A DNA stretch of 38,852 nt from Candidatus Omnitrophota bacterium (GCA_049324655.1 JBMONJ010000173.1:1-38852), one strand, 5' to 3'; positions 11,996 to 32,072 are shown, counted from the stretch's first letter. Notes: generated by a model from the sequence alone, not told the origin. Numbers and translations are program-made.

Positions 11996-12065
11996 GAATT
12001 CGGGGGAATTCGGGGTGGAATTCGGGGGACACAACACTTAATTGCGAATTAAGTTATGTGTCCCC
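11996..12065. repeat. Tandem gaattcgggg words followed by a 19 bp-arm hairpin
   Basis: GAATTC occurs at 11996, 12006 and 12018 inside three gaattcgggg(g/t) units. The hairpin ggggacacaacacttaatt / aattaagttatgtgtcccc spans 12025..12065 with 2 mismatches, followed by an A-run. Confidence 0.7.
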
Positions 12066-12076
12066 AGAAAAAAAAC

Positions 12077-12946
12077 ATGCAGCGATACATCGACAAATTT
12101 ATTTCCTACTTAGAGATCGAGAAGAACTCTTCGCCGCATACTGTCCTAAATTACCGTATTGATTTAAGAGAGCTGGCGGCTTTTTTGGAAGAGAAAAAGC
12201 TGGCTATTGAGAAGGTCGGTTATCTTCATTTGAGGCAATTCTTAGCCAGGCTGCGGGAAAAAAATCCCCGGCCGCGCACCTTGGCCAGAAAACTTTCGGC
12301 AATCCGCAGCTTCTTTAAATTCCTCTGCCGCGAAAGTTATCTTAAAGATAATCCCGCGGGTCTGCTGTCTAGTCCTAAGTTAGACAAGCGCCTGCCGAAA
12401 TTCTTAAGCGAAGAGGAAGTAGTTAAATTAGTCGAGGCGCCTAGATCTTGCGAGGAAAACGGCCTGCGCGACCGGGCGATTCTTGAGACGCTCTATTCTA
12501 CGGGAATGCGTTTAAGCGAGTTGGTGGGCCTGGAAATTAAGGATATTGATTTTTTCAGCAATATGATTAAAGTTAAGGGCAAGGGAAAAAAGGAAAGACT
12601 CCTGCCAATTGGCGAGCAGGCCTTGCGGGCCCTCAAGCAATATCTTGATGAGCGGCTGTCGGGCTCCGGCGCAGTTTTTATAAGCAAAAGAAACTCTGCT
12701 TTAAGCGGACGGCAGGTCAGGAATATCCTTAATAAATATATCCGCCTGACCAGCCAGAGGGAAAATGTTTCTCCGCATGCCCTCAGGCATTCTTTCGCCA
12801 CCCACCTTCTAAACCGGGGCGCGGATTTGCGCTCAGTGCAGGAGCTCTTGGGTCATGCCAATCTTTCCACCACCCAGATATACACGCATCTCACCACTGA
12901 CCGCTTAAAGGCGGTGTATGAAAAGGCGCATCCCCATGCGCGATGA
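12077..12946 (+). CDS. xerC: Tyrosine recombinase XerC/XerD family
   Basis: N-terminal SAM-like domain and C-terminal catalytic HALRHSFATHLL..GADLRSVQELLGHANLSTTQIYTH. The alternative ATG at 12056 lies inside the hairpin. I cannot separate XerC from XerD by eye. Confidence 0.88.
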   Translation: MQRYIDKFISYLEIEKNSSPHTVLNYRIDLRELAAFLEEKKLAIEKVGYLHLRQFLARLREKNPRPRTLARKLSAIRSFFKFLCRESYLKDNPAGLLSSPKLDKRLPKFLSEEEVVKLVEAPRSCEENGLRDRAILETLYSTGMRLSELVGLEIKDIDFFSNMIKVKGKGKKERLLPIGEQALRALKQYLDERLSGSGAVFISKRNSALSGRQVRNILNKYIRLTSQRENVSPHALRHSFATHLLNRGADLRSVQELLGHANLSTTQIYTHLTTDRLKAVYEKAHPHAR

Positions 12947-12952
12947 GATTAT

Positions 12953-13073
12953 AATGTCAAATGAACAATGTCAAATAAATTCCCCTGCCTGCGGCAGGCA
13001 ATTTCCAATTCCCAATATTTGAAGTGGACCCCTGGGATTGGACATTTATTTGGCATTTGAAATTTGACATTGG
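12953..13073. repeat. Family-2 tgtcaaat/ccaat-word foldback
   Basis: 5' arm aatgtcaaatgaacaatgtcaaataaattccc and 3' arm gggattggacatttatttggcatttgaaatttgacattgg, with an inner hairpin ctgcctgcggcagg. Confidence 0.7.
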
Positions 13074-13084
13074 TGATTCTAAAG

Positions 13085-14374
13085 ATGGCTTGGCTGTATA
13101 ACTTAGCATTCATAATCTTCTTAATCTTCTCCCTCCCCGTTTATCTTCTGCGCGGGAAATTTCATCGAGGGCTTCTGATGCGGCTGGGAATTTTTCCCAA
13201 AGGTTTCTTTGCAGGGCTACAAAAATCCCGGCCGGTGTGGTTGCATGCGGTAAGCGTAGGCGAGGTAAACGCCATTGCCGGTCTGGTGAAAAAACTCCAG
13301 CAAGAATTTTCCGAAATAAGGCTGGTTATTTCCACGGTCACGCCAACCGGAAATCGGCTGGCAAAATCCTTGGCCCGGGACTGCGACTTGATCATCTATC
13401 TGCCGCTGGATTTAAGCTTTATTACTGAGCGGATAGTAAAAATGGTGAACCCGCAGCTTTTTATTACCACCGAGACCGAGCTCTGGCCCAATCTTTTGAC
13501 CAGTTTAAAAAAACAATTTATCCCTCTTGCTCTGGTAAACGGCAGAATCTCTCCTCGTTCCTTTGCCGGTTATCGCCTTTTCCGTTTTCTCCTTAAAGAT
13601 ATCCTCGGCGGATTTAGTCTTTTCTGCATGCAAAGCGAATTAGACCGCCGTCGGATAATTACTTTAGGCGCTAAGGCGGATAAGGTCAGGGTCTTGGGCA
13701 ATATGAAATTTGATATAGATTTGGCCGCGACCAACGGCAATAGAAACGGTCGCGGCCCCTTCGAGAATTTGGCGTCGCTTTTAGGCGGGAATGGTCAGCT
13801 GATAATCTGCGGCAGCACCCACTCGGGAGAAGAAGAAATAATCTTAAGAATTTATAAAGACCTCTTGCTGCAGTTTGATTACTTGCGTTTACTTATTGCT
13901 CCCCGACATATTGAGAGAGTGGAACAGGTGGAGAAGCTGGTTGCCGAAGCCGGGTTATCTGTGCTAAAGGTTTCCGAGCTGGCAAGCCGCGATTTACTGG
14001 AGAAAAATTGCGTTTTGATCTTGGATACCGTTGGAGAGTTAAAGCGGCTGTATGACTTGGCCACTATTGTCTTTATCGGCGGCAGCCTAGTCAGGAGGGG
14101 TGGGCACAATATTATCGAACCGGCCTTTTTCAGCAAGGCGATTATCGTTGGGCCGCATATGTTTAATTTTGCGGATATCACCCGGACCTTCCTTGAGAAT
14201 CAAGCGGCGATTCAGGTTCACGACGAACTGGAGCTTTTAGAGGAGATAAAGCTTTTGTTGCTTAGCCCGGCCAAGCGGGACAGGCTGGGGCAAAGGGCTA
14301 AGGAGACTATAGGGCACAATCGTGGGGCGACCGGGGCCACCTTCGACTTGTTAAGACACATAATCGCCAAATAA
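13085..14374 (+). CDS. waaA: 3-deoxy-D-manno-octulosonic acid (Kdo) transferase WaaA/KdtA
   Basis: N-terminal membrane anchor, WLHAVSVGEVNA motif and GT30 C-terminal domain (GGSLV..GGHNIIEP). I prefer the ATG at 13085 over the TTG at 13064. Confidence 0.9.
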   Translation: MAWLYNLAFIIFLIFSLPVYLLRGKFHRGLLMRLGIFPKGFFAGLQKSRPVWLHAVSVGEVNAIAGLVKKLQQEFSEIRLVISTVTPTGNRLAKSLARDCDLIIYLPLDLSFITERIVKMVNPQLFITTETELWPNLLTSLKKQFIPLALVNGRISPRSFAGYRLFRFLLKDILGGFSLFCMQSELDRRRIITLGAKADKVRVLGNMKFDIDLAATNGNRNGRGPFENLASLLGGNGQLIICGSTHSGEEEIILRIYKDLLLQFDYLRLLIAPRHIERVEQVEKLVAEAGLSVLKVSELASRDLLEKNCVLILDTVGELKRLYDLATIVFIGGSLVRRGGHNIIEPAFFSKAIIVGPHMFNFADITRTFLENQAAIQVHDELELLEEIKLLLLSPAKRDRLGQRAKETIGHNRGATGATFDLLRHIIAK

Positions 14375-14500
14375 CCGGGCTGTATAAAGTTTCCCGTCGG
14401 TTGTCGTCTAAAAAGGTTACGGCCTCGGTAAAGTATCGGTTACGTATAAAAAGTCTTGGGTGTATGTAAGGCTATCAAAGGCCCGCTTCGCGGAGCGAAG

Positions 14501-14772
14501 CGAGGCGAGCATATATGGCATATAAGGCTAACAAGGCAACCGGGGTAAAGGGTTATTAGGTCAATATGGCGTTAATGTCAAATGCCAAATTTCCAATGCC
14601 AAATCAATGTCAAATTCGCCAATTCCAAATTGGACATTGGATATTGGGAATTTATTAGTCATTTGACATTGGGCATTGAACTTTATGGGCATTGGTCATT
14701 AATCGCCTAATAGCCTTTCTGCCTTTCATAGCCTCGAAAAATAATTCTTCACGATAGACGACTGGCGAAACC
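14501..14772. repeat. Long foldback element IR-A (family-2 core); inverted partner at 22179..22402
   Basis: Hand alignment to the reverse complement of 22179..22402 gives 224 aligned nt with 2 substitutions, plus a 48 nt insertion (14641..14688) that partly duplicates the adjacent gacattgggcatt sequence. It lies in a 465 nt ORF-free spacer. Confidence 0.85.
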
Positions 14773-14840
14773 TTATAGACGATACGTAGCCGCAACCAAA
14801 CCTTTTATAACGGAGACCAATATTTACATTTGAATCGCTT

Positions 14841-15911
14841 ATGAAAGAATATTTATATCGTCTGGCGACTGATGAGGCAAAAGGTTGGTTGACACTCCTG
14901 CCCAAGGCGGTCTTGTTTATTCTGTCGCTTCTTTATGCCGCAGCGCTTAAAATATCTGCCGCCCTATATAGGTTAAAATTGCTGAAACAATACAAATTAA
15001 ATGCCAAGGTCATCAGCGTCGGTAATATCACTTGGGGCGGCACGGGTAAGACGCCGCTGGTTGTCTTTTTAGCGCAAACTCTTTCTAAAGACCATAAGCC
15101 CGCAGTGCTTATCCGCGGCTACGGCAGCGACTTAAGTCGAACTTCGGTTTGGGCGAAGTTCGGGGACGAGGCCTTTATGCTTTCTGAAACCGTTAATGTT
15201 CCGGTCTTGGCCAGAGAGGACCGGCTGATTTCGGCAAGACAGGCAATAAACGATTTTTCCTGCGATACCTTAATCCTCGATGATGGTTTTCAGCAATGGC
15301 GTATCGGAAAGGATTTAGAGATAGTAGTCATTGATGCCGCCGCTCCTTTTGGTAACGGCCGGCTTATCCCCCGAGGAATTTTGCGCGAGCCGCTTTCGGT
15401 TTTAAAGCGTGCCGAAATATTTTTCTTAACCCGCACGGATTTGGCCAGCAATTTGCCGCAATTACGAGAGCGGCTTGCCGCGCTTAATCCTGAAGCCTTG
15501 ATAGTGGAAAGCGTGCATCAGCCGGTTGGCTTTTATGATTTAAAGAAAAAAGACTATCGGATTGACGAGTTGGAATTAGCTTCGCTAAAGAATGTGGCGA
15601 TATTGTGTGCTATTGGAAACCCCCGGGCTTTTGAAAAGACTGTTTCTGCTCTGGGAATAAATGTGAAACTTAGGTTCTTTTTTTTGGACCATCACTGCTA
15701 TTCAACATCCGAGATGGATAATATAATCGAAACTTGCAGGAAGGAAGATATCCCCGTCGTCATTACTACACAAAAAGACGCGGTAAAGCTGCGGGATTAT
15801 GTCTTATCCACCGATTGTGGGGTCAGGGTTCTGGTTTTGAAGACCGAGATTTTTATAACCAAGGCGAGGAATGAATTTCTTAGTCGATTATCTGGGTTAT
15901 ATACTGCTTAG
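14841..15911 (+). CDS. lpxK: Tetraacyldisaccharide 4'-kinase LpxK
   Basis: N-terminal membrane helix, P-loop GNITWGGTGKTP and LDDGFQ motif. Confidence 0.9.
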   Translation: MKEYLYRLATDEAKGWLTLLPKAVLFILSLLYAAALKISAALYRLKLLKQYKLNAKVISVGNITWGGTGKTPLVVFLAQTLSKDHKPAVLIRGYGSDLSRTSVWAKFGDEAFMLSETVNVPVLAREDRLISARQAINDFSCDTLILDDGFQQWRIGKDLEIVVIDAAAPFGNGRLIPRGILREPLSVLKRAEIFFLTRTDLASNLPQLRERLAALNPEALIVESVHQPVGFYDLKKKDYRIDELELASLKNVAILCAIGNPRAFEKTVSALGINVKLRFFFLDHHCYSTSEMDNIIETCRKEDIPVVITTQKDAVKLRDYVLSTDCGVRVLVLKTEIFITKARNEFLSRLSGLYTA

Positions 15912-17796
15912 GGCGATAACCGTTTTCTTTGTCCATATACCGGCACAGTTGGCTTTGTATATCGGCAGGGTAATCGGGGTCGTGGGTTATCACCTTGATC
16001 GTCATCATCGCAACATCGCCTACCACAATCTCAAAATGGCCTTTGGCCAAGAGAAGCCGCCGGCAGAGCTTAAAAGGATAACCCGGCGGCTTTACCAGAA
16101 TTTCAGCCAGAACATCGTCGAGCTTTTGCGTCTTCCGGCAGTGGACGCGGCGTATCTTAAGCGTTATATTTCGATAGAGGGCGAGGAATATCTTAAAGGC
16201 GCGATTGGGCAAAAGAAGGGGTTTATCTTTCTGGCCGTGCATTTCGGCAGCTGGGAGGTTTCGAATGTCTTGGGCGCGATGTTCGGATACACCTACAAGG
16301 TCATTGCCAAAGAGCAGAAAAGGTTTAAGCGTTTAAGCGCGCTTTTGACTTCTTATCGTCAGATTACCGGCGCCAATGTGGTAAACAAAGGCTGGGGCAC
16401 GCGGGATATTATCGAGGGTTTGCAAAATAATGAGGTCGTGGGTATGGTCGCGGATCAGGGCGGCAAAAGCGGGGTCTTTATCAATTTCTTCGGCCGGCCC
16501 GCGTCAATGTCTGCTGGGGCAATTCGCATTGCCCTGAAACTTGGGGTCACCGTGCTGCCGGTTTTTTTGATAAGGATAAAAGGCCCGCATCATCTTTTAA
16601 AGGTGATGCCGCCGCTGGATTTAAATGCCGCCGCTGATTTCGAGGAAAAGGTCAGAATAAATCTGGCTAAGGCCATTGGCTATGCCGAGGAGGTTGTCCG
16701 CCAATATCCCGATCAATACGCGTGGTTCTACAAGGTCTGGAAGTATTCCCGCCAACGCGAGATTTTAATACTAAGCGACGGGAAGGCCGGCCATCTTCGA
16801 CAGTCTGAGGCGGTGGCCGGGGTTTTGGAAGAACAGCTTAAGAGGAAAGGGCTTGTCCCCGCGACGCGGACGATTGAGATAAGGTTTAAAAGTCGCTTTG
16901 CCTGCCGGGCAGCTATGGCCTCCAGTTTTTTCTCCAACCGTGGGCTGTGCCAGGGTTGCCAGAAGTGCCTGAAGTATTTTCTCGCCGAGAAGACCCATCA
17001 AGAGCTTTCCGGGGCAAACGCAGATTTTATTATCTCCTGCGGCTCGGCCTTGGCCGGAATAAATCTTATTGTAGCGGCGGAGAATCAGGCCAAGAGTATC
17101 GCGGTATTGAAGCCGGTGATTTTGGGAGTAAAAAGATTTTCGCTGGTGATAATGCCTAAACATGATCTGCCGCCGGCAGAGAAGAATGTCTTTATCACCT
17201 TGGGTGCGGTCAATGGGTTTGCTGCCGGTCCTAAACAATTTCCGCAATGGGATTCCGGGCGTAGTAAGATCGGGATTTTAATCGGCGGAGATACCAAGAA
17301 TTCAAGACTGGATAAAGGAACTCTGGCCTCGGCCCTTGATTTAATAAAGGCGCAGGCCGAGGCCAGAGATTTGGATATCCTTGTCACTACTTCCCGACGC
17401 ACCCCGCGGCAAATCGAGGAGCTAATAAAAGAAAAATTATCGGATTTCGCGCGCTGCAAGCTTTTGGTAGTTGCCAATGAGAAAAATATTCCCGATGCCG
17501 TTGCTGGGATTTTATCCTTAAGCCATATCCTCGTGGTCACTGATGACAGTATTTCGATGGTCTCCGAAGCGGCCTCTTCCGGACAGAGCGTCTTGGTGCT
17601 GCGCGAAAAATCAGCAAATCTCACCTACTCCCGGCGCGACCGCTTCTTAAGGGAATTATCCGAAAAGAACCATATCCTGCTTAGCGACCTTACCGGGTTG
17701 TCGCAAAATCTTGAAGCGCTTTTTTCCGGCAGACTTAAAACCAAGCTGCTTAACGACCGCGAGGTGCTGGTTAAAGCGGTTAATTCAATCATATGA
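15871..17796 (+). CDS. lpxL: Fusion of a lipid A late acyltransferase (LpxL/HtrB family) and an ELM1/DUF1022-like domain
   Basis: Residues ~1-290 carry the LPLAT fold with HFGSWEV (HX4E) and MVADQGG. Residues ~295-641 begin ILILSDGKAGHLRQSEAV, which resembles the start of the ELM1/DUF1022 family (from memory). Confidence 0.7.
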   Translation: MNFLVDYLGYILLRAITVFFVHIPAQLALYIGRVIGVVGYHLDRHHRNIAYHNLKMAFGQEKPPAELKRITRRLYQNFSQNIVELLRLPAVDAAYLKRYISIEGEEYLKGAIGQKKGFIFLAVHFGSWEVSNVLGAMFGYTYKVIAKEQKRFKRLSALLTSYRQITGANVVNKGWGTRDIIEGLQNNEVVGMVADQGGKSGVFINFFGRPASMSAGAIRIALKLGVTVLPVFLIRIKGPHHLLKVMPPLDLNAAADFEEKVRINLAKAIGYAEEVVRQYPDQYAWFYKVWKYSRQREILILSDGKAGHLRQSEAVAGVLEEQLKRKGLVPATRTIEIRFKSRFACRAAMASSFFSNRGLCQGCQKCLKYFLAEKTHQELSGANADFIISCGSALAGINLIVAAENQAKSIAVLKPVILGVKRFSLVIMPKHDLPPAEKNVFITLGAVNGFAAGPKQFPQWDSGRSKIGILIGGDTKNSRLDKGTLASALDLIKAQAEARDLDILVTTSRRTPRQIEELIKEKLSDFARCKLLVVANEKNIPDAVAGILSLSHILVVTDDSISMVSEAASSGQSVLVLREKSANLTYSRRDRFLRELSEKNHILLSDLTGLSQNLEALFSGRLKTKLLNDREVLVKAVNSII

Positions 17797-19874
17797 AGGT
17801 CCTGCAGATTTTACCCGAGTTGAATGTCGGCGGAGTGGAGACTGGCACCCTTGATTTATGCCGCTATCTTATCACTAAAGGCCATCAGGCAGTGGTGGTT
17901 TCTGGCGGTGGAAAGTTGGTGGAGGAACTAGAGCAAATCGGCGTTAAGCATTATACCCTGCCAGCTAACGAAAAATCCTTGTTTTCCATTTTGCGGATGA
18001 TTGATAAATTAAGCGTGATAATCCGCGAAGAAAAAGTGGCAATAGTTCACGCCCGTTCCCGCGTGCCGGCGTGGGCAACCTTTTTTGCCTGCCGTCGCAC
18101 TAATACCGCCTTTATCACGACCTGTCACGGTTACTATTCACATCATTTTTTCAGTCGGGTAATGGCCTGGCCCAAGCTGGTCATCTGCCCCAGCCGGGTA
18201 ATCGCCCGGCATATGGTGGAAGATTTTGGCCTGCCTCACGAGCGTCTCAGGCTTATACCGCGCAGCGTGAATTTGGAAAAATTTCCTTTCCGAGCGGTTG
18301 ACTCCCGGCCTGCGGAGGAATTTATCGTCGGGATAATCGGAAGGATTACTCCTTTAAAGGGCCACGAATATTTTCTGAGGGCTATGGCCAAAGTTATCCG
18401 GCAGGTTCCCTCGTTAAAGGTTTGGATTATCGGCGATGCGCCAGAGGGCAAACAGGATTATAAACAGGAACTGATGACTTTGGTGCGCCGTCTGGTTTTG
18501 TCAAACTATGTGGAGTTTTTAGGCAACCGTAGCGATATACCGGAATTGCTCTCCCATATGCATTGCTTGGTGCTTTCTACGGTTACCGAAGAGGCCTTTG
18601 GCCGGGTTATCCTTGAGGCGCAGGCTGCGGGGGTGCCGGTGGTGGCGACCAGGGTGGGCGGAGTAGTAGATATTGTAGATGAGGAAAAAACCGGACTCTT
18701 AGTTACGCCCCGCGATCCCGACGAAATGGCTGCGGCGACAATCCGTATCTTTAAGGATAAAACCCTATCCCGGCGCTTAAGCGCAGCAGGCCGCAGAAAG
18801 GTTGAGCAACAATTTACCTTAAAAGAGATGGGGGATAAGACTCTCAAGGTTTATGACGAGCTTTTGCATTTGCAGAATATTTTGGTCATAAAGCTCGGTG
18901 CGGTGGGTGATGTGATTCTGGTGACTCCGTCTTTACGGGCTATCCGCGGGCATTTTCCCCGAGCAAAAATCTTTTGCTTGACGGGAAAAGAAGGCCGCGA
19001 GGTGTTGCAGCGCTGTCCTTTTTTGGACGACTTGATAGTTTATGATTACAAAGAGGCGAACCGCGGCATTAAAGGGCTTCTGTGTCTTGGCCAGCAACTA
19101 AGAAGATACAATTTTGATCTGGCAATAGATTTTCAGAATTCCCGCAAGAGCCACTGGCTTTCTTTTTTAAGTCTGGCACGCCAGCGCTGCGGTTATGACC
19201 GTAAATTCGGTTTTCTGCTTAACCAAAAGGTAAAGTACGACGGTGGTCAACTTCCCGCAGTGGAGCATCAATTTCAACTGCTTCAGGCATTGGGTATAAA
19301 ACCCCAAGACCGGACTTTAAAACTGTGGCCGGCAAAAACGGATGAAGATTATGTTGCCGGCCTCCTTGATTCAGAATGGCTTTCTGAGGTCACCAACATC
19401 GTCGGCATAAACATCGCCGCTTCCGAAAAATGGCTCAGCAAAAGTTGGCCCATAGAAAATATTGTTCGCCTCTGCGACGAGCTTTCCCGGCGTAATATCC
19501 GCGTGGTCTTGACTGGCACTTTAGTGGATATGCCAAAGGCTGAACGGATTATGCGGCTTACCAAATCCAGGCCGGTCAACTTCACGGGCAAAACCACCAT
19601 AATGCAGTTGGCCAGCCTGATAAAAAGATGCAAGGTATATATAAGCGCGGATTCCGCGCCTTTGCATATTGCCGCGGCAATGGGCGCGGCGGTAATTGGG
19701 CTTTTTGGTCCTACCTCGCCACAACGCCATATGCCGCCAGCGGAAAAATTTGCGATAATCAAAGGCAAGGCCGACTGCGCGCCCTGCTACAAGCCGAATT
19801 GCCGTCGGGTAGAATGCATGTATTCGATAGGCGTGGAAGAGGTTCTTGAAGCGATAATGAGATTCCTTGATTAA
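17793..19874 (+). CDS. Fusion glycosyltransferase: GT4 (GT-B, EX7E) N-terminal domain plus GT9 heptosyltransferase C-terminal domain
   Basis: The N-terminal half has GGVETGTLDL and EAFGRVILEAQAAGVPVVATRVGGVVDIV. The C-terminal half has ILVIKLGAVGDVILVTPSLRAIR and ISADSAPLHIAAAMGAAVIGLFGPT. ATGA overlap with the upstream gene. Confidence 0.85.
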   Translation: MKVLQILPELNVGGVETGTLDLCRYLITKGHQAVVVSGGGKLVEELEQIGVKHYTLPANEKSLFSILRMIDKLSVIIREEKVAIVHARSRVPAWATFFACRRTNTAFITTCHGYYSHHFFSRVMAWPKLVICPSRVIARHMVEDFGLPHERLRLIPRSVNLEKFPFRAVDSRPAEEFIVGIIGRITPLKGHEYFLRAMAKVIRQVPSLKVWIIGDAPEGKQDYKQELMTLVRRLVLSNYVEFLGNRSDIPELLSHMHCLVLSTVTEEAFGRVILEAQAAGVPVVATRVGGVVDIVDEEKTGLLVTPRDPDEMAAATIRIFKDKTLSRRLSAAGRRKVEQQFTLKEMGDKTLKVYDELLHLQNILVIKLGAVGDVILVTPSLRAIRGHFPRAKIFCLTGKEGREVLQRCPFLDDLIVYDYKEANRGIKGLLCLGQQLRRYNFDLAIDFQNSRKSHWLSFLSLARQRCGYDRKFGFLLNQKVKYDGGQLPAVEHQFQLLQALGIKPQDRTLKLWPAKTDEDYVAGLLDSEWLSEVTNIVGINIAASEKWLSKSWPIENIVRLCDELSRRNIRVVLTGTLVDMPKAERIMRLTKSRPVNFTGKTTIMQLASLIKRCKVYISADSAPLHIAAAMGAAVIGLFGPTSPQRHMPPAEKFAIIKGKADCAPCYKPNCRRVECMYSIGVEEVLEAIMRFLD

Positions 19875-19905
19875 GTTGCAAAGATCCTCCATCAAGTAGG
19901 TGTAG

Positions 19906-20016
19906 TTTTGGGTATCGGTATGGGTAAGGTCGGGTTGTCGTTCTAGGTGTTGTTCTCGTTTTCGGAACGATAACCGCACCGATAACCAGAGCCAGACGTT
20001 ACCGATACCCAGAACG
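19906..20016. repeat. One-off word foldback (ggtatcgg/cgataacc words)
   Basis: ttttgggtatcggta (5' end) is complementary to taccgatacccagaa (3' end). The inner arms are built of ggttgtcg versus cgataacc words, centred near 19962. Confidence 0.65.
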
Positions 20017-20028
20017 AAAATATTTTTT

Positions 20029-22165: not shown

Positions 22166-22178
22166 GGGGATGTATGTT

Positions 22179-22402
22179 GGTTTCGTCAGTCGTCTATCGT
22201 GAAAAATTATTTTTCGAGGCTATGAAAGGCAGAAAGGCTATTAGGCGATTAATGACCAATGCCCAATGTCCAATTTGGAATTGGCGAATTTGACATTGAT
22301 TTGGCATTGGAAATTTGGCATTTGACATTAACGCCATATTGACCTAATAACCCTTTACCCCGGTTGCCTTGTTAGCCTTATATGCCATATATGCTCGCCT
22401 CG
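22179..22402. repeat. Long foldback element IR-B, inverted partner of 14501..14772
   Basis: See IR-A. It lies in a 339 nt ORF-free spacer between two heptosyltransferase genes. Confidence 0.85.
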
Positions 22403-22504
22403 CGGCGAGGTCGAGGGCCGGCAAGGCAGGGAGTCTTTGCGATTTAGCGGTGTAAAACGACTTTTTCAACAGTCTTCTAAACGCGGCCGTCTGAGAAATA
22501 TTCT

Positions 22505-24514
22505 ATGAAAATACTCTTTATAACCTTAAGTAACATCGGCGATGTAATTCTCACTCTTCCGGCAATGGATATCCTGCGCCGCGATTTTCCCGAGGCGCAA
22601 TTTACCGTACTTTGCTCAGAGAAGGCCGCGGATATTTTCCGTAATGACCCACAGGTGGAACTGTTAGTTTTTGACAAGCGTGCTTCAATAAAAGATTATA
22701 TCCGCCTTACCCTTGCTTTGAGAAAGGAATGTTTTGACTGGATATTCGATTTTCGCAATACCGCCTTTCCTTGGTTACTGCGCAGCCAGCGGCACACCTC
22801 TGCGTTTATCAAAATCCCTAAGGACATTGTGCATAAGAAAGGTCAGCATCTTTTCCGGTTAAGATCCATTTATCCCTTTGCCGGCGAGGCGGCGGCAAAT
22901 TCTATTTTTATAGAGGAGAAAGACCGGCAATTCATCGCCGATAAATTGGGAGTTCTTGAAGGACGCAAGTTGGTAGTCATCAGCGCTGGTGCAGCCAATG
23001 AATGGAAGTGTTGGACCGAAGAGGGTTTTGCCGTGGTAGCCGACTGGTTAATTGAAGAATACGCAGTGGCAGCGGTCTTGGTCGGCGATGAGAAGGATAG
23101 GGAGTCAAGCGGCCGGATAAGCGAGAAGATGCGCAACCGGCCGCTTAACCTCTCCGCAGAAACCTCGCTTAAGCAGTTGGCAGTTTTATTGTCCAAAGCT
23201 GATTTGGTAATTTCCAATGACAGCGCAGTAATGCACCTCGCCAGTTACTTAAATGTGCCGGTTGTTGCGTTGTTCGGCCCCAGCAACGAGAAAAGGTATG
23301 GGCCGTGGAGCAGGAAGCGTTTCGTGGTGCGTAGTAATGTGTCGTGTGCGCCTTGCGAAAAATCCGGTTGTGACCAGGAACATGATTGTATGCGCTCTAT
23401 CCCGCCACTGCAGGTTATCAAGGTACTTAAAGAGAATTTCTCCGAACTTAAAGTAGAACTTCCGGCGGCCAGGGATTTTTCTAAAGACAGAAAGCGGATT
23501 CTATTGGTGCGTACTGACCGTATCGGAGATGTACTGTTGACTACGCCGGTGCTTAAGGCCCTAAAGGAATTCTGGCCGTATAGTTATGTGGCGATGTTAA
23601 TCGCCCCGCAAACCCGCGAGATTGTAGAAGGTAATCCTTATTTAGACGAGGTGATGGTTTTTGATAAACAAAAAGGCTGGCGGGGATTTTGGGGGATGGT
23701 TAGGAAGTTAAGAAGTAAGCATTTTGATCTAGCTCTGGTTTTGCATACCAAGCGCTGGACTAATCTATTGTGTTTTCTTTCGGGGATAAAAGAACGGGTG
23801 GGGTATCATAATAATAAATTCGGTTTTCTTTTGACACAAAAGATTCCCGATACCCGGCCACAAGGCAAAATGCATGAAGCTGAATATTGTCTGGCGGCTT
23901 TAAGTAGGATTGGGATTCCGGCGCAATATTCCCCGCCGTTTATGCCGATAAGTTCTTCGGCTGAGATTTGGGCGGACGAGGTTCTGAAAAGTAATGGAGT
24001 GGCGAGAAAGGATTTATTGATCGCCCTTAATCCCGGGGCAAGTTGTCCTTCCAAGCGCTGGAGAGAGGAAAAATGGGCGATTTTGGCGCGGCGCTTGTCC
24101 GAAAAGCTCGGCGCCAAAATCGCCATCATATGCGGCTCTTCGGATATGTCGGTAGCCCAAGAAGTATTAAGCCGCGTATCTTTTCCGGTCATTGACCTTG
24201 CCGGCAAAACTTCGCTTAAGCAACTGGCCAGTTTTTTGCGCCGCGCTAATCTATTTATCACCAATGATTCCGGGCCAATGCATATTGCCTGTGCGGTGAA
24301 CACGCCGGTGGTGGCCGTTTTCGGCAGAAATGAAAAAGGATTAAGCCCAAGACGCTGGGGGCCCTGGGGAAAGCTCTCGACGGTGTTGCACAAAGAAGTG
24401 GGTTGCGAACTTTGCCTTGCCCACAACTGTCAGAAAGGCTTTGCCTGCCTTGAGGCAATTTCTCCTGAAGAAGTGCTGACAGTCGCAGAGCAACTTTTAA
24501 GTAGCTCACGATGA
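22505..24514 (+). CDS. Tandem GT9::GT9 heptosyltransferase fusion
   Basis: Two complete GT9 modules. Module 1 has ILFITLSNIGDVILTLPAM...ISNDSAVMHLASYLNVPVVALFGPS. Module 2 has ILLVRTDRIGDVLLTTPVLKAL...ITNDSGPMHIACAVNTPVVAVFG. Confidence 0.85.
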   Translation: MKILFITLSNIGDVILTLPAMDILRRDFPEAQFTVLCSEKAADIFRNDPQVELLVFDKRASIKDYIRLTLALRKECFDWIFDFRNTAFPWLLRSQRHTSAFIKIPKDIVHKKGQHLFRLRSIYPFAGEAAANSIFIEEKDRQFIADKLGVLEGRKLVVISAGAANEWKCWTEEGFAVVADWLIEEYAVAAVLVGDEKDRESSGRISEKMRNRPLNLSAETSLKQLAVLLSKADLVISNDSAVMHLASYLNVPVVALFGPSNEKRYGPWSRKRFVVRSNVSCAPCEKSGCDQEHDCMRSIPPLQVIKVLKENFSELKVELPAARDFSKDRKRILLVRTDRIGDVLLTTPVLKALKEFWPYSYVAMLIAPQTREIVEGNPYLDEVMVFDKQKGWRGFWGMVRKLRSKHFDLALVLHTKRWTNLLCFLSGIKERVGYHNNKFGFLLTQKIPDTRPQGKMHEAEYCLAALSRIGIPAQYSPPFMPISSSAEIWADEVLKSNGVARKDLLIALNPGASCPSKRWREEKWAILARRLSEKLGAKIAIICGSSDMSVAQEVLSRVSFPVIDLAGKTSLKQLASFLRRANLFITNDSGPMHIACAVNTPVVAVFGRNEKGLSPRRWGPWGKLSTVLHKEVGCELCLAHNCQKGFACLEAISPEEVLTVAEQLLSSSR

Positions 24515-24735
24515 AAAAGCTAAAATGGATAATCGCACGGGAGGTCTTGATACTTATTGCGTTGGGGGTTGTACTTCACCTGCTATTGTCTCTCCTGCAG
24601 AATGTGGCAATAGTTCTGCCGCAGTATCGCTCTCTTTTAGGCGTTAACTTTCTTTACCAACTGGCGATGGCCTATCTCGCTTGGTTTGTCGTCCGTTTTG
24701 CCATTTGGATAACCGGTGCGGTTAGGGATAAATGA
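24511..24735 (+). CDS. Small predicted membrane protein (74 aa, two hydrophobic helices)
   Basis: ATGA overlap with the upstream gene. It has two ~20 aa hydrophobic stretches and I recognised no homology. Confidence 0.45.
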   Translation: MKKLKWIIAREVLILIALGVVLHLLLSLLQNVAIVLPQYRSLLGVNFLYQLAMAYLAWFVVRFAIWITGAVRDK

Positions 24736-24741
24736 GGAGTG

Positions 24742-24770
24742 TTGACGCCTGCCTTAAACTATGGTAGAAT
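24742..24770 (+). promoter_or_regulatory. Sigma70-like promoter candidate overlapping the first ATG of the next ORF
   Basis: ttgacg (24742..24747), 17 nt spacer, tagaat (24765..24770). If it is used, translation would start at the ATG at 24782 on a near-leaderless mRNA. Confidence 0.35.
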
Positions 24771-25705
24771 CTCTCGAAAAAATGGACCTCGGTAAACTCA
24801 AAACTTATTCTCTAAATCGGCGTAAAAGCAAGGTTAATCTTCAGTTATTTGCCCGCTCCCTGCATAAAGGCGCCAGCTTTAAAGAGTTTTATGCCTCTTT
24901 GCCTAAGGTGCTGGCAGCAGAGAATTTGCATAAAGTATCGGCAGCGGTGGTAAACAGCGCCAAGGCCAAAAAAATGGTTATTTTTATGGCCGGCGCCCAT
25001 GTCCTCAAATGCGGCTTAAATCCTATTGTCATCAATTTAATAAAAAGAGGCGTCATCAAGTGCGTGGTCTTAAACGGCGCGGGCATTATCCATGACTTTG
25101 AGCTCGCCTATGCGGGGTTTACTTCCGAGGATGTCTCTGAGGCGATTAAAGACGGCAGCTTTGGCATGGCCAAGGAAACCGCAGAGTTTATTAACACGGC
25201 AATCAAAGAAGGGAATGACTGTGGCCTCGGCTTGGGAAAAAGTGTGGCCGAGGCCATAGATAAGCATAACCTGCCCCACAGAAATTTAAGTCTGCTTTAC
25301 AATTGCCTTAAATATAAAATTCCAGTTTGTGTGCAAGTGGCGATTGGCACGGATATTATCCATCAGCATCCTTCCTGCGACGGGGCAGCCGTGGGCGAGG
25401 CATCGTTACGCGATTTTCATCAGCTCATCGCGCAAGTGGCAAAATTGGAAAAAGGCGTGTTGTTGAATTTCGGCTCCGCAGTGATTCTGCCCGAGGTTTT
25501 CTTAAAAGCCCTGACCGTAGCCAGAAATTTAGGTTATAAGGTAAAGGATTTTACCACGGCAAATTTCGATATGCTTTTCCATTACCGGCCGCAGCAGAAT
25601 ATCGTTTGCCGCCCAACCCAAGGTACGGGCAAAGGTTATTATATCCTCGGCCATCACGAGATTATGCTGCCCCTCTTGGCAGCGGCTGTCATTGAGAAAC
25701 TTTGA
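24761..25705 (+). CDS. Deoxyhypusine synthase (DHS)-fold family protein, function unknown
   Basis: Blocks are collinear with eukaryotic DHS as I recall it: VIFMAGAHVLKCGLNPIVINLIKRGVIKCVVLNGAGIIHDF, KYKIPVCVQVAIGTDIIHQH, GVLLNFGSAV, and C-terminal MLPLLAAAV. Alternative start at 24782. Confidence 0.55.
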   Translation: MVESLEKMDLGKLKTYSLNRRKSKVNLQLFARSLHKGASFKEFYASLPKVLAAENLHKVSAAVVNSAKAKKMVIFMAGAHVLKCGLNPIVINLIKRGVIKCVVLNGAGIIHDFELAYAGFTSEDVSEAIKDGSFGMAKETAEFINTAIKEGNDCGLGLGKSVAEAIDKHNLPHRNLSLLYNCLKYKIPVCVQVAIGTDIIHQHPSCDGAAVGEASLRDFHQLIAQVAKLEKGVLLNFGSAVILPEVFLKALTVARNLGYKVKDFTTANFDMLFHYRPQQNIVCRPTQGTGKGYYILGHHEIMLPLLAAAVIEKL

Positions 25706-25724
25706 ATTATTATGAAGAGCCGTC

Positions 25725-25820
25725 TACACCGCTAAAGCGCAAAATGTCCGCAAAAGCGCAAAGATTTTCCTATCAAAAAGAACTTTGCGTCTTTGCGGGT
25801 TTTGGCGGTTTTGCGGTGTA
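25725..25820. repeat. One-off word foldback (gcgcaaa/tttgcg words)
   Basis: 5' arm tacaccgctaaagcgcaaaatgtccgcaaaagcgcaaag and 3' arm ctttgcgtctttgcgggttttggcggttttgcggtgta. It ends 8 nt before the hldA start. Confidence 0.7.
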
Positions 25821-25827
25821 AAAATCT

Positions 25828-26838
25828 ATGAAAAATCTTAAACAAATAATTTCAGAATTTAACCGCGTCAGGATAATGGTGGTCGGCGACTTGGTTTGGG
25901 ATGAATTTATCTGGGGAAAGGTGGAGAGGATTTCTCCCGAGGCGCCGGTGCCGGTTGTGTTAGAAACCCGCAGGTCCTATATGCCTGGGGGCGCGGCAAA
26001 TGTCGCCAATAACTTAAGGAGTATCGGTTGTGCGGTAAGTCTCGTCGGAAAAGTCGGCGATGATGCGGAAGGCAAAACGCTCCTTGAGGACATAAAAAAA
26101 CTGGGCATTGCGACTAACGGGATCCTGTGCGATAAAAAATCACCTACCATTGTCAAGACCCGGGTTATTGCCCAGCACCAGCAGGTGGTGCGGGTTGATC
26201 GGGAGACCGTAGGCTTAAGTCCTGACTTCGCAAATCAGCTGGCTACTTTTATCATTAAGCAGCTTCCCGCCTTCGATGCGATCATCATTGAAGATTACGG
26301 CAAAGGAGTAATCAATCCCGGCTTACTGCATAAAGTTTTTCCGGTTGCCCGTCAGTTAAACAAGGTAATTGCCGTGGACCCCAAAGAGGATCACTTTGAT
26401 TTTTACGCGGGCGCCACAGTGATTACCCCGAACCGCAAAGAAGCGGAAAATGCCGTGAGTTATCTCAAGATAAAAGACGACCAGAATCGTTTTCGAATGA
26501 ATGTCGCCCGCCTCAACACCGACAAGGATCTTAACTCGGCGGGCAAAGAGTTGCTGCGTTATCTTGATCTGGAAGCGGTATTGATTACCTTGGGCGAGCA
26601 AGGGATGCGGTTGTTTGAGAAGGACAAGCCACCCCTGCATATCGATACTGTGGCGCAGGAAGTTTTTGATGTCTCCGGTGCCGGAGATACAGTAATCGCT
26701 GTCTTTACTGCGGCCTTGGCCAGCGGTGCCGGGAAAAGAGAATCCGCCATTCTTGCCAATTTTGCCGCGGGTATTGTCGTCGGTAAATTAGGCGTTGCTA
26801 CCGTCAGCCAACAGGAATTACTTAAGACTATAAGATAG
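25828..26838 (+). CDS. hldA: D-glycero-beta-D-manno-heptose-7-phosphate kinase (RfaE domain I, PfkB family)
   Basis: VGDLVWDEFIWGKVERISPEAPVPV, ITPNRKE and DVSGAGDTVIAVF. It has the kinase domain only, with no adenylyltransferase domain. Confidence 0.88.
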   Translation: MKNLKQIISEFNRVRIMVVGDLVWDEFIWGKVERISPEAPVPVVLETRRSYMPGGAANVANNLRSIGCAVSLVGKVGDDAEGKTLLEDIKKLGIATNGILCDKKSPTIVKTRVIAQHQQVVRVDRETVGLSPDFANQLATFIIKQLPAFDAIIIEDYGKGVINPGLLHKVFPVARQLNKVIAVDPKEDHFDFYAGATVITPNRKEAENAVSYLKIKDDQNRFRMNVARLNTDKDLNSAGKELLRYLDLEAVLITLGEQGMRLFEKDKPPLHIDTVAQEVFDVSGAGDTVIAVFTAALASGAGKRESAILANFAAGIVVGKLGVATVSQQELLKTIR

Positions 26839-26853
26839 GGATTAAGAAGTATT

Positions 26854-26977
26854 TGTTGTGAGTAGTGTGGGTGAGTTGTGAGTAGTGAGTCGAGTTGTGG
26901 GTTGTGAGGGTGAGGAGAAATATTCCCCACCCCCATCCCCATTACCCGACCCACAACACACAACTCATCCGCACCCC
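26854..26977. repeat. Family-1 G/T-word foldback element, copy 4
   Basis: 5' arm ttgtgagtagtgtgggtgagttgtgagtagtgagtcgagttgtgggttgtgagggtgagg with a ~7 nt gtgag periodicity. 3' arm ccccacccccatccccattacccgacccacaacacacaactcatccgcacccc. Confidence 0.75.
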
Positions 26978-27011
26978 AAGAGTAAAATATTATTTCACCT
27001 CAAACAAGACG

Positions 27012-29361
<2,350 letters not shown>

Positions 29362-29363
29362 GA

Positions 29364-29448
29364 CACGGATTTACACGGATTTAATTCGGATTTGCACGGA
29401 TATGATTTGTCCGTGCTAATCCGGTTTCTTATCTGTGTTAATCCGTGC
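29364..29448. repeat. One-off word foldback (cacggatt/aatccgtg words)
   Basis: 5' arm cacggatttacacggatttaattcggatttgcacgga and 3' arm tccgtgctaatccggtt...taatccgtg. It fills the pyrG-kdsA spacer. Confidence 0.7.
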
Positions 29449-29454
29449 AATAAT

Positions 29455-30288
29455 ATGGTTAAGGCAATAAGAGTAAAGGACATCAAAATCGGCACGGGTC
29501 AGCCGCTCGTGTTAATCGCCGGGCCTTGCGTGATTGAAAGCCGGGATGCGGCTTTACGCGCGGCAAAAAGACTTAAATCCCGCGTCGGAAAACTTAAGAT
29601 GCCGTTTATATTTAAGTCAAGTTATGATAAAGCCAACCGCACCTCGATTAAGTCCTTTCGCGGCCCGGGCCTTAAAAGGGGGTTGCAGGTTTTAAGGGAA
29701 ATTAAGGAAACGCTGGCTGTGCCGGTTTTAAGCGATGTGCATTCGGTTGTCGAGGTCAAGGCCGCGGCCCAGGTTTTGGATGTGATACAAATACCCGCAC
29801 TCTTGTCACGGCAGACGGATTTGCTGCGCGCTGCTGCTGAGACCGGCAAGGTTATCAATGTCAAGAAGGGCCAGTTTTCTGCGCCGTGGGATATGATTGA
29901 GGTTATAAAAAAGATTGAGAGCGCCGGGAATAAAAATATCCTGATAACCGAAAGGGGCGTAAGCTTCGGGTATAATAATCTGGTCTCGGATTTTCGTTCG
30001 TTGGTAATTATGCGTAAATTCGGTTATCCGGTGGTTTATGATGCCACGCACAGTGTGCAGCTTCCCGCGGGTGCCGGGGAAAGCTCCTCGGGACAGAGTG
30101 AGTTTGTACCGTTTTTGTCACGCGCGGCCGCGGCGGTGGGCTGCGACGGTTTGTTTTTGGAGGTGCATGAGAATCCCGCGGCCGCGCTCTGCGACGGCCC
30201 GAATATGATTTCCTTGCACGAGCTCGAGACCTTATTAAAACAAGTCATTGCCATTGAGAGAGCGTTAAAAAGTCAAGTTAGACGGTAG
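29455..30288 (+). CDS. kdsA: 3-deoxy-8-phosphooctulonate (Kdo-8-P) synthase
   Basis: LIAGPCVIES, FKSSYDKANR and VYDATHSVQ. I prefer the ATG at 29455 because the longer ORF start lies in the repeat. Confidence 0.92.
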   Translation: MVKAIRVKDIKIGTGQPLVLIAGPCVIESRDAALRAAKRLKSRVGKLKMPFIFKSSYDKANRTSIKSFRGPGLKRGLQVLREIKETLAVPVLSDVHSVVEVKAAAQVLDVIQIPALLSRQTDLLRAAAETGKVINVKKGQFSAPWDMIEVIKKIESAGNKNILITERGVSFGYNNLVSDFRSLVIMRKFGYPVVYDATHSVQLPAGAGESSSGQSEFVPFLSRAAAAVGCDGLFLEVHENPAAALCDGPNMISLHELETLLKQVIAIERALKSQVRR

Positions 30289-30293
30289 TTTCA

Positions 30294-30385
30294 GGGGTGA
30301 GGATGGGTTGTGAGTAGTGAGTCGGGTTGTGTGTTGTGAGGGTGGGGTGTTAATTCCTCACAACTCACCCACAATACTCACAACC
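30294..30385. repeat. Family-1 G/T-word foldback element, copy 5
   Basis: Starts ggggtgaggatgggttgtgag and ends cctcacaactcacccacaatactcacaacc, matching the termini of copy 2. Confidence 0.75.
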
Positions 30386-30395
30386 TAAAGATCGA

Positions 30396-31355
30396 ATGAC
30401 TATTCAAAGAGCAAAAAAGGTATTGTTAACCGAAGCCACGGCAATAAAGAAACTTACCCGACGGGTCGATCAACATTTCTTGAAGGCCGTAGAAATGATC
30501 TGCCGCAGCAGGGGTCGGGTCGTGGTCACGGGAATGGGCAAGGCCGGAATCATCGGACAAAAAATTTCTGCAACTCTCTCCTCGGTAGGCACGCCAAGTT
30601 TATGGTTGCACAGCGCCGAGGCCATTCACGGCGATTTAGGCCGGGTCACCAAAGACGACATCATTATCCTTTTATCCAACAGCGGAGAGACTGACGAGGT
30701 AAAGAAATTATTGCCGCTTTTGAAAAAATTAGGGGCTAAGATAATTGCTATTACCGGACAGCTTAAATCCACGCTGGCAAAATACAGCGATGTGGTCTTG
30801 GATGTCTCGGTAAAAGAAGAGGGTTGCCCGCTGGGTCTGGCCCCAATGGCCTCGACCACGGCAATGTTAGCAATGGGCGATGCCTTGTCTGCGTGCCTTA
30901 TTGAGCGCAAGGGTTTTAAGCGCGAGGACTTTGCCTTCTTACATCCCGGCGGAAACTTGGGGAAAAGGCTTTTGCTAAGGGTTGAAGATATTATGCGTAA
31001 AGGCGCCGCCAATCCGATAGTGAGCGAGGAAAAAAAAGTAAAGGATGTACTTTTAAATATAACCCAAGCCCGCGCCGGCTCGGCAACCATTGTAAATAAA
31101 CAAGGCCGCCTTGTTGGGATATTTACCGACGGAGATTTGCGTCGGCATTTGGAAAAAGACCCGGACTTATCCTTGCGAAAAGTAAGCGAGGTTATGACCA
31201 AAAATCCCATCACCATTTCCCCCGGCCGTCTGGCCGTGGAAGCCCTGCGCGTCTTGGAGGAGAAAAAGATTGATGAAATCCCGGTAGTGGACTGCCGCCA
31301 TAAGCCGGTGGGGTTGTTGGATATTCAGGATGTTTTAAAAGCAGGTTTGGTATAA
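30396..31355 (+). CDS. kdsD: Arabinose-5-phosphate isomerase (SIS domain plus tandem CBS domains)
   Basis: GMGKAGIIGQKISATLSSVGTPS, SNSGET, and a C-terminal CBS pair. Confidence 0.9.
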   Translation: MTIQRAKKVLLTEATAIKKLTRRVDQHFLKAVEMICRSRGRVVVTGMGKAGIIGQKISATLSSVGTPSLWLHSAEAIHGDLGRVTKDDIIILLSNSGETDEVKKLLPLLKKLGAKIIAITGQLKSTLAKYSDVVLDVSVKEEGCPLGLAPMASTTAMLAMGDALSACLIERKGFKREDFAFLHPGGNLGKRLLLRVEDIMRKGAANPIVSEEKKVKDVLLNITQARAGSATIVNKQGRLVGIFTDGDLRRHLEKDPDLSLRKVSEVMTKNPITISPGRLAVEALRVLEEKKIDEIPVVDCRHKPVGLLDIQDVLKAGLV

Positions 31356-31380
31356 CTTCTTTCCGATTTGTTTAATGAAA

Positions 31381-31466
31381 AATGTCCGATGACTAATGCC
31401 AAATAAATTTCCAATGCCCAATTGGTCATTGGAAATTTGACATTGATTTGACATTTGACATTGGAA
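31381..31466. repeat. Family-2 tgtcaaat/ccaat-word foldback
   Basis: 5' arm aatgtccgatgactaatgccaaataaatttccaatgcccaatt and 3' arm ggtcattggaaatttgacattgatttgacatttgacattgg. Confidence 0.7.
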
Positions 31467-31477
31467 ATTAAAGAATA

Positions 31478-31996
31478 ATGACTTTAAGAGAGAGACTGAA
31501 AAGGATTAAGCTGTTGATAATGGATGTTGACGGTGTCTTAACCGACGGGAAAATCGTCTTTGACGATCAAGGCGGCGAGTTGAAGTTTTTCGATGTGCAG
31601 GACGGTTTGGGCGTGGTGCTGATAAAAAGGGTGGGGGTCAAGACGGCTATAATCACCGCTAAGGGCTCCAAGGTCGTGGAGCGCCGCGCCGCGGATATGC
31701 AGGTTGACCATCTTTATCAGGATGCCGAAGACAAAACCATTGCCTTCCGTCATCTTTTGGAAGAATCGAAACTTAAAGCCGAAGACGCCTGCTTTATTGC
31801 CGACGAGCTTATTGACCTGCCGGTAATCAAGCTGGCCGGTCTGGCCGTAGCCGTAAAGAATGCCGCGCCGGAAGTAAAAAGATACGCCCATTACATCACC
31901 AAGAGAAACGGCGGACAGGGCGCGGTCCGGGAAGTTATCGAAATGATTTTAAAGGCGCAGGGCGAGTGGCGACGTGCCACTGAGAAATATATTTGA
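31478..31996 (+). CDS. kdsC: Kdo-8-phosphate phosphatase (HAD family)
   Basis: LLIMDVDGVLTDGKI and a typical KdsC length of 172 aa. Confidence 0.88.
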   Translation: MTLRERLKRIKLLIMDVDGVLTDGKIVFDDQGGELKFFDVQDGLGVVLIKRVGVKTAIITAKGSKVVERRAADMQVDHLYQDAEDKTIAFRHLLEESKLKAEDACFIADELIDLPVIKLAGLAVAVKNAAPEVKRYAHYITKRNGGQGAVREVIEMILKAQGEWRRATEKYI

Positions 31997-32072
31997 GGAC
32001 ACCACGACACCTGACACCAAGTCACCCGTAGACTGTTGACGGGTGGCATGGTGTCTTGGTGGCTTGGTGACC
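31997..32072. repeat. One-off word foldback (gacacc/ggtgtc words)
   Basis: 5' arm ggacaccacgacacctgacaccaagtcaccc, 13 nt loop, 3' arm gggtggcatggtgtcttggtggcttggtgacc. Here the C/A-rich arm comes first. Confidence 0.7.

Follow-up and report, generated by a model that had tools for sequence, protein, structure and literature searches.

Based on a computational analysis of a 38,852-nt contig from a Candidatus Omnitrophota bacterium (GCA_049324655.1, JBMONJ010000173.1; the whole stretch is referred to as the window), we propose that five intergenic foldbacks, F1 to F5, represent five families of gene-less palindromic dispersed repeats, 55–115 nt long, that were inserted pre-formed at short or overlapping operon junctions. 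We assign this reading a probability of roughly 0.7. The elements are best read as non-autonomous palindromic mobile repeats of the kind represented by REPINs, which pair two inverted repetitive extragenic palindromes (REPs), and by miniature inverted-repeat transposable elements (MITEs). F1 is a classical REP, and F2–F5 are an undescribed tandem-word variant of REP-like selfish DNA. Elements of this kind are dispersed through the genome, alternate between presence and absence at orthologous junctions, replace one another there, nest within each other and lie in random orientation; no internal open reading frame (ORF) was found in the hairpin elements.

Five word-built foldbacks and their dispersed copies

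The window is contig C173 of the metagenome-assembled genome (MAG) G000, which comprises 1.67 Mb in 230 contigs at 47.5% G+C, is 85% complete and is fragmented at repeats. The best matches of its PyrG are Candidatus Omnitrophota MAGs. Every large gene of the window lies on the + strand, and these genes include topA, xerC, glycosyl- and heptosyl-transferases of the lipopolysaccharide (LPS) core, a GSU2086-family protein, rfaE domain I, pyrG, kdsA, kdsC and lptC. Genes were called as greedy longest ORFs, so that start-side distances are approximate. The five foldbacks were recovered within about 5 nt of their original delimitation. F1 (11990–12072), between topA (stop 11981) and xerC (ATG 12077), consists of three tandem GGAATTCGGGG words, present on the 5' side only, and a REP hairpin at 12021–12069 with arms GGGGACACAACACTTAATT and AATTAAGTTATGTGTCCCC. 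F2 (19905–20016) separates a GT4-GT9 fusion gene (stop 19874) from a GT4 gene (ATG 20029), and its arms pair GGTATC/GGTTTC-type hexamer words with GATACC/GATAAC words. F3 (25725–25820), between the GSU2086-family gene and rfaE/hldE domain I, is built from CGCAAA(A)-type words and reads TACACCGC...GCGGTGTA from end to end. F4 (29364–29448) lies between the pyrG stop (29361) and the kdsA ATG (~29456), with four CACGGAT(TT) words per arm, and F5 (31997–32072) lies between kdsC (stop 31996) and lptC (ATG 32079), with four GACACC-type words per arm.

As originally described, tandem words in one arm face complementary words in the other. A lag-autocorrelation of each arm against 2000 shuffles gave p<=0.02 for one or both arms of every foldback, with best lags of 12, 6, 8, 10 and 8 nt for F1 to F5. 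The Tandem Repeats Finder program (TRF) reported arrays with a period of 7–15 nt in the arms of F1, F3, F4 and F5 and missed F2, whose lag-6 periodicity is supported by p=0.006 and 0.014. Predicted RNA fold energies are -34.4, -56.1, -45.1, -48.0 and -46.0 kcal/mol, corresponding to z scores of -5.5, -7.2, -5.9, -10.2 and -5.5 against 200 dinucleotide shuffles each; in no case was a single shuffle as stable, which confirms that the hairpins exceed chance. Folding as single-stranded DNA (ssDNA) gives z scores of -4.5 to -9.4 and is significant for both strands of all five. The view that they are not canonical intrinsic terminators also held: a terminator-pattern scan of 11950–31949 returned no site at F1–F4, and none was seen by eye at F5, which lies outside the scanned interval. 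Rfam gave no match at gathering score across the whole window.

The original prediction took the different word in each spacer to mean that the foldbacks are not copies of one element. A sensitive BLAST search of G000 with each foldback as query overturned this view at the level of families, as every one has full-length or near-full-length copies with unrelated flanks on 4–8 other contigs, at 74–94% identity. Copies of F1 are found on C126 (several), C94 (two), C224, C133 and C127 (84–94%), those of F2 on C73, C210, C162 and C76 (78–81%), and those of F3 on C8, C99, C70, C90 (with a nested insert), C9 and C7 (77–83%). F4 recurs on C111, C194, C74, C9, C12 and C122, with a short form on C99, and F5 on C23, C60 (two) and C178, with solo arms on C186, C128 and C177. 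In total we count 8–11 loci in G000 for F1, 5 for F2, 6–9 for F3, 6–11 for F4 and 6–15 for F5. F2–F5 are low-copy families, each arm stringing together 3–4 variants of a single 6–11 nt word. All copies shown for F1–F4, together with the hairpin form of F5, lie outside ORFs, and some solo word arrays of F5 lie inside them. The copies share position-specific word variants; the third F4 word, for instance, is TTCGGAT or AACGGAT in all six aligned copies. Moreover, same-strand identity between copies (78–83%) exceeds the complementarity of the two arms (68–76%), from which it follows that the whole imperfect hairpin is inherited as a unit.

Foldbacks of this kind are not confined to the window. 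When the spacers of 40–250 nt in G000 (n=448) were compared with length-matched coding controls, 37% against 1.3% had z<-3 and 25% against 1.1% had z<-4 (Mann-Whitney p=4e-32), so the intergenic enrichment is real. It is also a lineage trait, as had been suggested, since only 5% of spacers in 40 loci of other phyla and 12.5% in nine other-Omnitrophota loci reach z<-4; in L128, a related contig described below, 4 of 10 spacers do. Among the 112 spacers of G000 with z<-4, 95 (85%) have a homolog in another spacer, compared with 58 of 244 at z>-2. Clustering of the dominant hairpins of G000 yielded at least 13 multi-member clusters, many of them with word-built arms, and further word types include TATCAG, GATTACAG, CGCAGAT, CGCGAAT, GTCATAC and AAATCAAAA. 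Families A, B and E occupy 65–97, 23–39 and 17–26 loci, respectively. In the class, 10 of 301 genomes contain detectable family A elements.

Occupancy of operon junctions in relatives

Evidence for insertion comes from orthologous junctions. The nearest genome compared, G001, belongs to the same order and a different family (PyrG 79% identical); L128 is a 272-kb contig from the Joint Genome Institute (JGI) with KdsC 81% identical and synteny as in the window, and L131 is a contig from a closer relative (KdsC 87% identical). The comparators are mostly distant, save two short contigs, and one contig, L127, is uninformative, as it has an identical KdsC and is 99.98% identical to the window. G001 and the window agree in gene order from aroK to the glycosyltransferase (GT) genes, with only small gaps between matched genes, and they also share the order DS-rfaE-kdsB-pyrG-kdsA-kpsF-kdsC-lptC-lptB. 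The G001 junctions that correspond to the sites of F1, F2, F4, F5 and several A and E elements overlap or measure no more than about 25 nt, and clean indels are apparent in the alignments of kdsC/lptC, pyrG/kdsA, topA/xerC and GT9/GT4. Thus F1 is absent from a tight topA/xerC junction in G001, where the GT9/GT4 junction that holds F2 is tight as well. At the F4 site, pyrG and kdsA overlap (ATGA) in L128 and are tightly spaced in G001 and G020. F5 is missing from L128 and G001, in which kdsC overlaps or directly adjoins lptC, and an orthologous copy is present in L131. G001 also has a tight kdsA/kpsF junction; its kpsF/kdsC spacer measures about 45 nt and contains no hairpin, and in L128 the latter two genes are 1 nt apart.

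In other cases the junction is filled differently. The L128 spacer between DS and rfaE, the site of F3, bears a family-E-like word hairpin in place of F3, and its rfaE/kdsB spacer bears a CGCAGAT-word hairpin in place of family A, at a junction that is tight in G001 and G020. Occupancy of a junction therefore changes between lineages, and different families use the same junction. The original prediction had invoked local slippage followed by inverted duplication; the clean presence and absence at conserved gene junctions speaks against this and indicates instead that pre-formed elements were inserted. Insertion has also left a mark on a gene end: F5 replaced the last kdsC codons, so that the protein ends ...KYI* in the window versus ...KYTV* in L128, with the TGA stop at the left junction.

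Nesting supplies a further case of one element entering another. In the window (9769–9967) the apical loop of a family B hairpin is the exact site of a family A element, and this composite recurs at C23:20091-20287.

How the elements may move, and competing explanations

Operationally, F1 qualifies as a REP that has a cognate transposase resembling REP-associated tyrosine transposases (RAYTs) (PMC3116915, PMC3337134). G000 carries Y1_Tnp genes (PF01797, above cut-off) on C126 and C63, whose only NCBIfam match at E<=0.01 is NF047646 (REP-associated tyrosine transposase), at 64.8 and 72.6 bits, short of the cut-off of 80; HUH motifs (HIH, HYH) are visible in both proteins. The gene on C126, RAYT-1 (2322–2981), is flanked by inverted F1 halves, one at 2263–2301 (GGAATTCCGGGGACACATAACTTAATT upstream) and two in the opposite sense at 2978–3035 (AATTAAGTGATGTGTCCCC twice downstream). 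The association extends beyond this genome. More than 120 metagenome contigs contain an exact 19-nt F1 core, and 12 of the 120 core-bearing loci examined encode a RAYT-1 homolog (45–62% identical), with the core within about 180 nt of the gene end in 11 of these 12; at L264 it lies on both sides of the homolog in inverted orientation. F2–F5 and families A, B, D and E were not found in 723 kb of metagenome contigs bearing the F1 core. The distribution of the REP core is thus wide, and that of the word families is confined to a narrow lineage. The F1 hairpin is a single 55-nt palindrome rather than two inverted REPs, and the GGAATTCGGGG words beside it are reiterations of its outer foot; similar foot reiterations adjoin other F1 copies and the RAYT-1 gene. 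RAYT-like genes occur in 245 of the 301 genomes of the class, often with several matches per genome, which is unusually pervasive for genomes of 1–2.5 Mb. The second gene, RAYT-2 (C63:1-660, with 5' ends also at C94:10300-10425 and C5:2-127), occupies at least two genomic contexts and is flanked by inverted TAGACGCTTTAT / AAAGCGTCTA motifs, without words of F2–F5.

By extension, we suggest that the elements were moved in trans, most likely as ssDNA hairpins, by a Y1 transposase of the RAYT type or by another small nuclease. Lacking a U-tract, they would not terminate transcription and could therefore persist inside operons. As a by-product, the co-transcribed hairpins could stabilize or process mRNA, or uncouple translation, as REPs do in Escherichia coli.

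Several points weigh against this reading. The words of F2–F5 are not palindromes, so these elements lack the REP sub-hairpins that RAYT and IS200-type enzymes bind. No RAYT gene flanked by F2–F5 words was seen in G000, which is weak evidence because the MAG is only 85% complete. The flanks of F4 and F5 both carry an ATG/TGA-containing pentamer (AATGAG / ATATGG and TTTGA / TATGA), which could be a diverged 3–5 nt duplication of the ancestral ATGA overlap and would point to a DDE-type enzyme. Finally, family alignments of F3 and F4 show paired word cores that are almost invariant between copies and linkers and loops that vary, a contrast that could reflect purifying selection acting on the individual inserted copies and hence a host-level function.

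How could arms made of words originate? Most likely the words arose before each family spread, a speculative step for which two routes may be imagined. A mini-hairpin might repeatedly nest into the loop of its own copy, or a slipped-register fold-back might be followed by fill-in. The nesting route would leave loop halves as unpaired linkers, and such linkers are observed. The number of words per arm varies between copies, from 2+2 to 4+4 in family B and from 3 to 6 in family A. Perfect AAGACACC x4 arrays, made of the F5 word and devoid of a partner arm, lie in frame within two ORFs (C128:680-760 and C186:3500-3590), so word arrays can also insert into or expand within coding sequence. One of them interrupts a protein that is LysA-like by eye (...YHEIVPL-KTPRHQDTKTP-VDVVGPICE...). 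By eye, some word families appear partly related (CGCTAAT/CGCGAAT/CGCAGAT/CACGGAT/CGCAAAA; GTGAG/GGTATC/GGTGTC), which hints at rapid concerted divergence.

A more novel reading, which we consider possible though improbable, is that the word hairpins form a distinct class of bacterial mobile element rather than REPINs, growing by self-nesting or fold-back and served by a mobilizer that reads hairpin geometry. This mobilizer could differ from a RAYT and be, for example, one of the small GIY-YIG nucleases found next to hairpin repeats in the phylum. An enzyme that recognizes geometry instead of sequence would explain how a single design came to be common to more than 13 unrelated word types.

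We regard it as unlikely that the hairpins are primarily functional inter-cistronic mRNA elements kept by selection whatever their origin, whether by blocking 3'-exonucleases, by offering processing sites to RNase III or RNase E, or by modulating translational coupling. Their location invites such a view, as they lie almost only in transcribed same-strand spacers (24–31% of tandem spacers reach z<-4, versus 12–13% of divergent or convergent ones), and the 102 strongest hairpins of same-strand spacers have a median length of 98 nt and begin at a median of 7 nt past the upstream stop codon. Termination was rejected as their role, with no scan match at F1–F4 and a T-rich tail in only 8% of those 102; ordinary terminators with T-runs coexist in G000 (C53:6735 and C98:5870, for example), which sets the long hairpins apart as a separate class. 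Apart from the near-invariant word cores, the functional view could also call on the fact that most window hairpins are more stable on the sense strand (F2, -57.9 versus -46.0 kcal/mol). However, the bias is not specific. Averaged over the hairpins, sense folds exceed antisense ones in stability by 1.6 kcal/mol (sense favoured in 62 hairpins, antisense in 40), and non-hairpin spacers show a difference of 1.7. It had been pointed out that some stem mismatches place G opposite T and would still pair in a sense RNA; positions 32022 and 32046 do pair in the fold, so the observation is true, yet because non-hairpin spacers share the bias it reflects strand composition, and a strand-specific RNA function through G:U pairs was rejected as a specific signal. 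Each family has an orientation that can be defined, and with respect to neighbouring genes it is likewise unbiased, with 26 sense and 19 antisense elements in family A, 23 and 21 in A2 and about even numbers in the small families.

The original prediction looked to compensatory changes as a sign that stems are kept, but in alignments of F3, F4 and family A none rise above controls. In family A (19 copies) a single both-sides-changed cell was found versus 3.0 +/- 2.5 in shuffles, so that such changes do not exceed chance; pairs with a double change are rare in F4 (2/31) and F3 (1/31), and by eye the substitutions between F5 of the window and L131 are not neatly compensatory. Invariant cores combined with few double changes are easier to reconcile with recent copying from master sequences than with a structured RNA of great age. 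Together with the missing Rfam match, the hairpin-free junctions with overlapping genes in G001 and L128, and the occupation of one junction by different families in different lineages, these results favour inserted mobile repeats over a dedicated RNA.

Somewhat less probable still is that the elements are classical MITEs, deletion derivatives of an insertion sequence (IS) of the DDE type, with arms that are terminal inverted repeats (TIRs) containing reiterated binding words and a transposase that the MAG failed to capture. Some transposons, such as Tn7 and Mu, carry reiterated sub-terminal binding sites, and the elements are dispersed, gene-less and palindromic, with conserved ends in F3 (the two termini given above) and F4 (CACGG...CCGTGC); the pentamers flanking F4 and F5 could represent a short duplication. 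Yet no clear target-site duplication is visible at F2 or at the nesting of family A in family B, and a genome of about 2 Mb would have to encode many transposases to serve more than 13 unrelated word types. Moreover, a scan of G000 for inverted arms 250–9000 nt apart disclosed no autonomous partner: the candidates on C74, C157 and C129 contain ordinary-looking genes (PilT-, NuoH-, ferredoxin- and DAHP-synthase-like by eye) between separate complete hairpins and were discarded. Formation of each foldback in place, by slipped word duplication and then an inverted duplication through template switching, might draw on the GGAATTCGGGG triplet beside F1 and its reiteration beside other F1 copies, the partnerless AAGACACC arrays and the variable number of words per arm, but is very improbable given full-length homologs of all five foldbacks that share position-specific word variants and resemble each other more than their own arms match. 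An integron attC-like reading was dropped in view of flanking genes that are housekeeping genes in conserved synteny; an integron integrase was not searched for.

Relation to known repeats and further elements

The preferred reading, mobile repeats inserted pre-formed, places these elements near REP/REPIN-RAYT systems, described in Pseudomonas fluorescens SBW25 and E. coli (PMC3116915, PMC3337134, PMC3733652). Both comprise extragenic, palindromic, gene-less repeats of about 50–110 nt able to form hairpins in ssDNA or mRNA, present in tens of copies between same-strand genes, with several families per genome and tandem repeat pieces beside the copies; for F1 alone, the likeness extends to a Y1/HUH gene flanked by the inverted repeat. 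In contrast, the arms of F2–F5, A, B and E are arrays of non-palindromic 6–11 nt words and not two inverted REP mini-palindromes plus a spacer, no cognate RAYT was found for these families, and the GTAG/CGTC tag (PMC3733652) is missing. Compensatory changes are common in REPINs, whereas none was seen in the Omnitrophota elements, and the families far outnumber the RAYT genes of G000 (at least 13 versus 3 loci).

Other known repeats share part of the picture. Bacterial interspersed mosaic elements (BIMEs) of enterobacteria combine REP types with defined linker motifs and bind integration host factor (IHF) or gyrase. Spacers of G000 are similarly mosaics of repeat-family pieces, as in the nesting of A in B and in the spacer C177:4260-4495, a BIME-like patchwork in which a piece of family A, half of an F1 with repeated CCGGAAC words and the right arm of an F5 are combined. 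Correia elements (Correia repeat enclosed elements, CREE) of Neisseria, enterobacterial repetitive intergenic consensus (ERIC) sequences and repeat units of pneumococcus (RUP) are long-hairpin MITEs with defined TIRs, a TA or other target duplication and an IS relative. They resemble our elements in size class, intergenic position, co-transcription and palindromy over most of their length, and differ in that F2–F5 lack recognizable TIRs with a clear target duplication, and an IS partner. Cyanobacterial short tandemly repeated repetitive (STRR) sequences are tandem heptamer repeats in intergenic DNA. The TAACTGA direct repeats of Beggiatoaceae are tandem 7-nt intergenic words (PMC4679880). Like the Omnitrophota families, STRR and the Beggiatoaceae repeats are lineage-specific reiterated short words of several types; unlike them, they are described as direct arrays and not as complementary arrays paired in one hairpin. 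Intrinsic terminators share a stable hairpin just past the stop codon, but the G000 hairpins have no U-tract, are 3–5 times longer and stand inside conserved operons. Within the literature searched, no specific description of Omnitrophota repeats was found, and the tandem-word architecture is not part of the REPIN or MITE descriptions read here.

What are the implications of these repeats for the genome that carries them? At least 13 palindromic repeat families colonize the junctions of essential, conserved operons (LPS core, pyrG, topA/xerC) in a genome of about 2 Mb, including junctions at which stop and start codons overlap in relatives. This provides a natural experiment on the inter-cistronic structure that an operon tolerates and on the rebuilding of gene ends after insertion, as in the altered end of kdsC. 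With these findings, Omnitrophota join the small number of lineages that are rich in REP-like repeats, and RAYT-like genes are near-universal in the class concerned. The tandem-word architecture may reveal how long palindromes grow. In practice, such repeats interrupt assemblies and, since the longest-ORF starts of several genes run through hairpins, lead to inflated ORF calls. The longest-ORF calls of kdsA, topA, kdsB and xerC begin inside or upstream of hairpins and are over-extended.

Further members of the large families are present in the window. A family A hairpin at 26855–26975 pairs GTGAG/GTGGG heptamers with CTCAC/CCCAC, and additional copies lie at 1264–1356, 8550–8625, 9861–9944 and 30306–30385. 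The family B hairpin that hosts a family A element is built from CGCTAAT/CGCGAAT words, and a short uninterrupted family B copy is found at 7944–7988. Family E is represented at 31405–31470, between kpsF and kdsC, by AATGTCAAAT / CAATGCC words, with a second copy at 12953–13078. Two inverted repeats, 14500–14772 and 22179–22403, are 98% identical over about 150–270 nt and contain family-E words; enclosed between them is a 7.4-kb block of genes for lipid A and the core. At the left member of this pair, the junction g13064/g14841 spans only a few nt in G001. A tandem AAATCCC array (x4.4) lies outside any hairpin at 32907–32937, near the 3' end of the lptC ORF.

In G001 the spacer between the GSU2086-family gene and rfaE (L113:15415-15830) holds a three-hairpin repeat module that encloses a small ORF with a GIY-YIG-like signature, YYGYTNNLERRLKEH, recognized by eye. 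The ORF is a possible alternative mobilizer. Weak tblastn matches to it in G000 (E 2e-4 to 7e-3) lie at C161:2742-2843, C106:3740-3826 and C228:651-779, and all three adjoin CTTCGGCG-word or F1-like hairpins. Additionally, a multi-hairpin module of the form GACATAAGTTAT...GAATTTGACCCTTGACA...CTCATTAAAGGAG is common to G000 (C87:10914-11034 and C188:3516-3591), L128 (13630–13840 and 14980–15190) and G001 (L114:11137-11423). Its end coincides with the Shine-Dalgarno sequence of the following gene, and it belongs to a repeat class that is different from, and more widely conserved than, the word hairpins.

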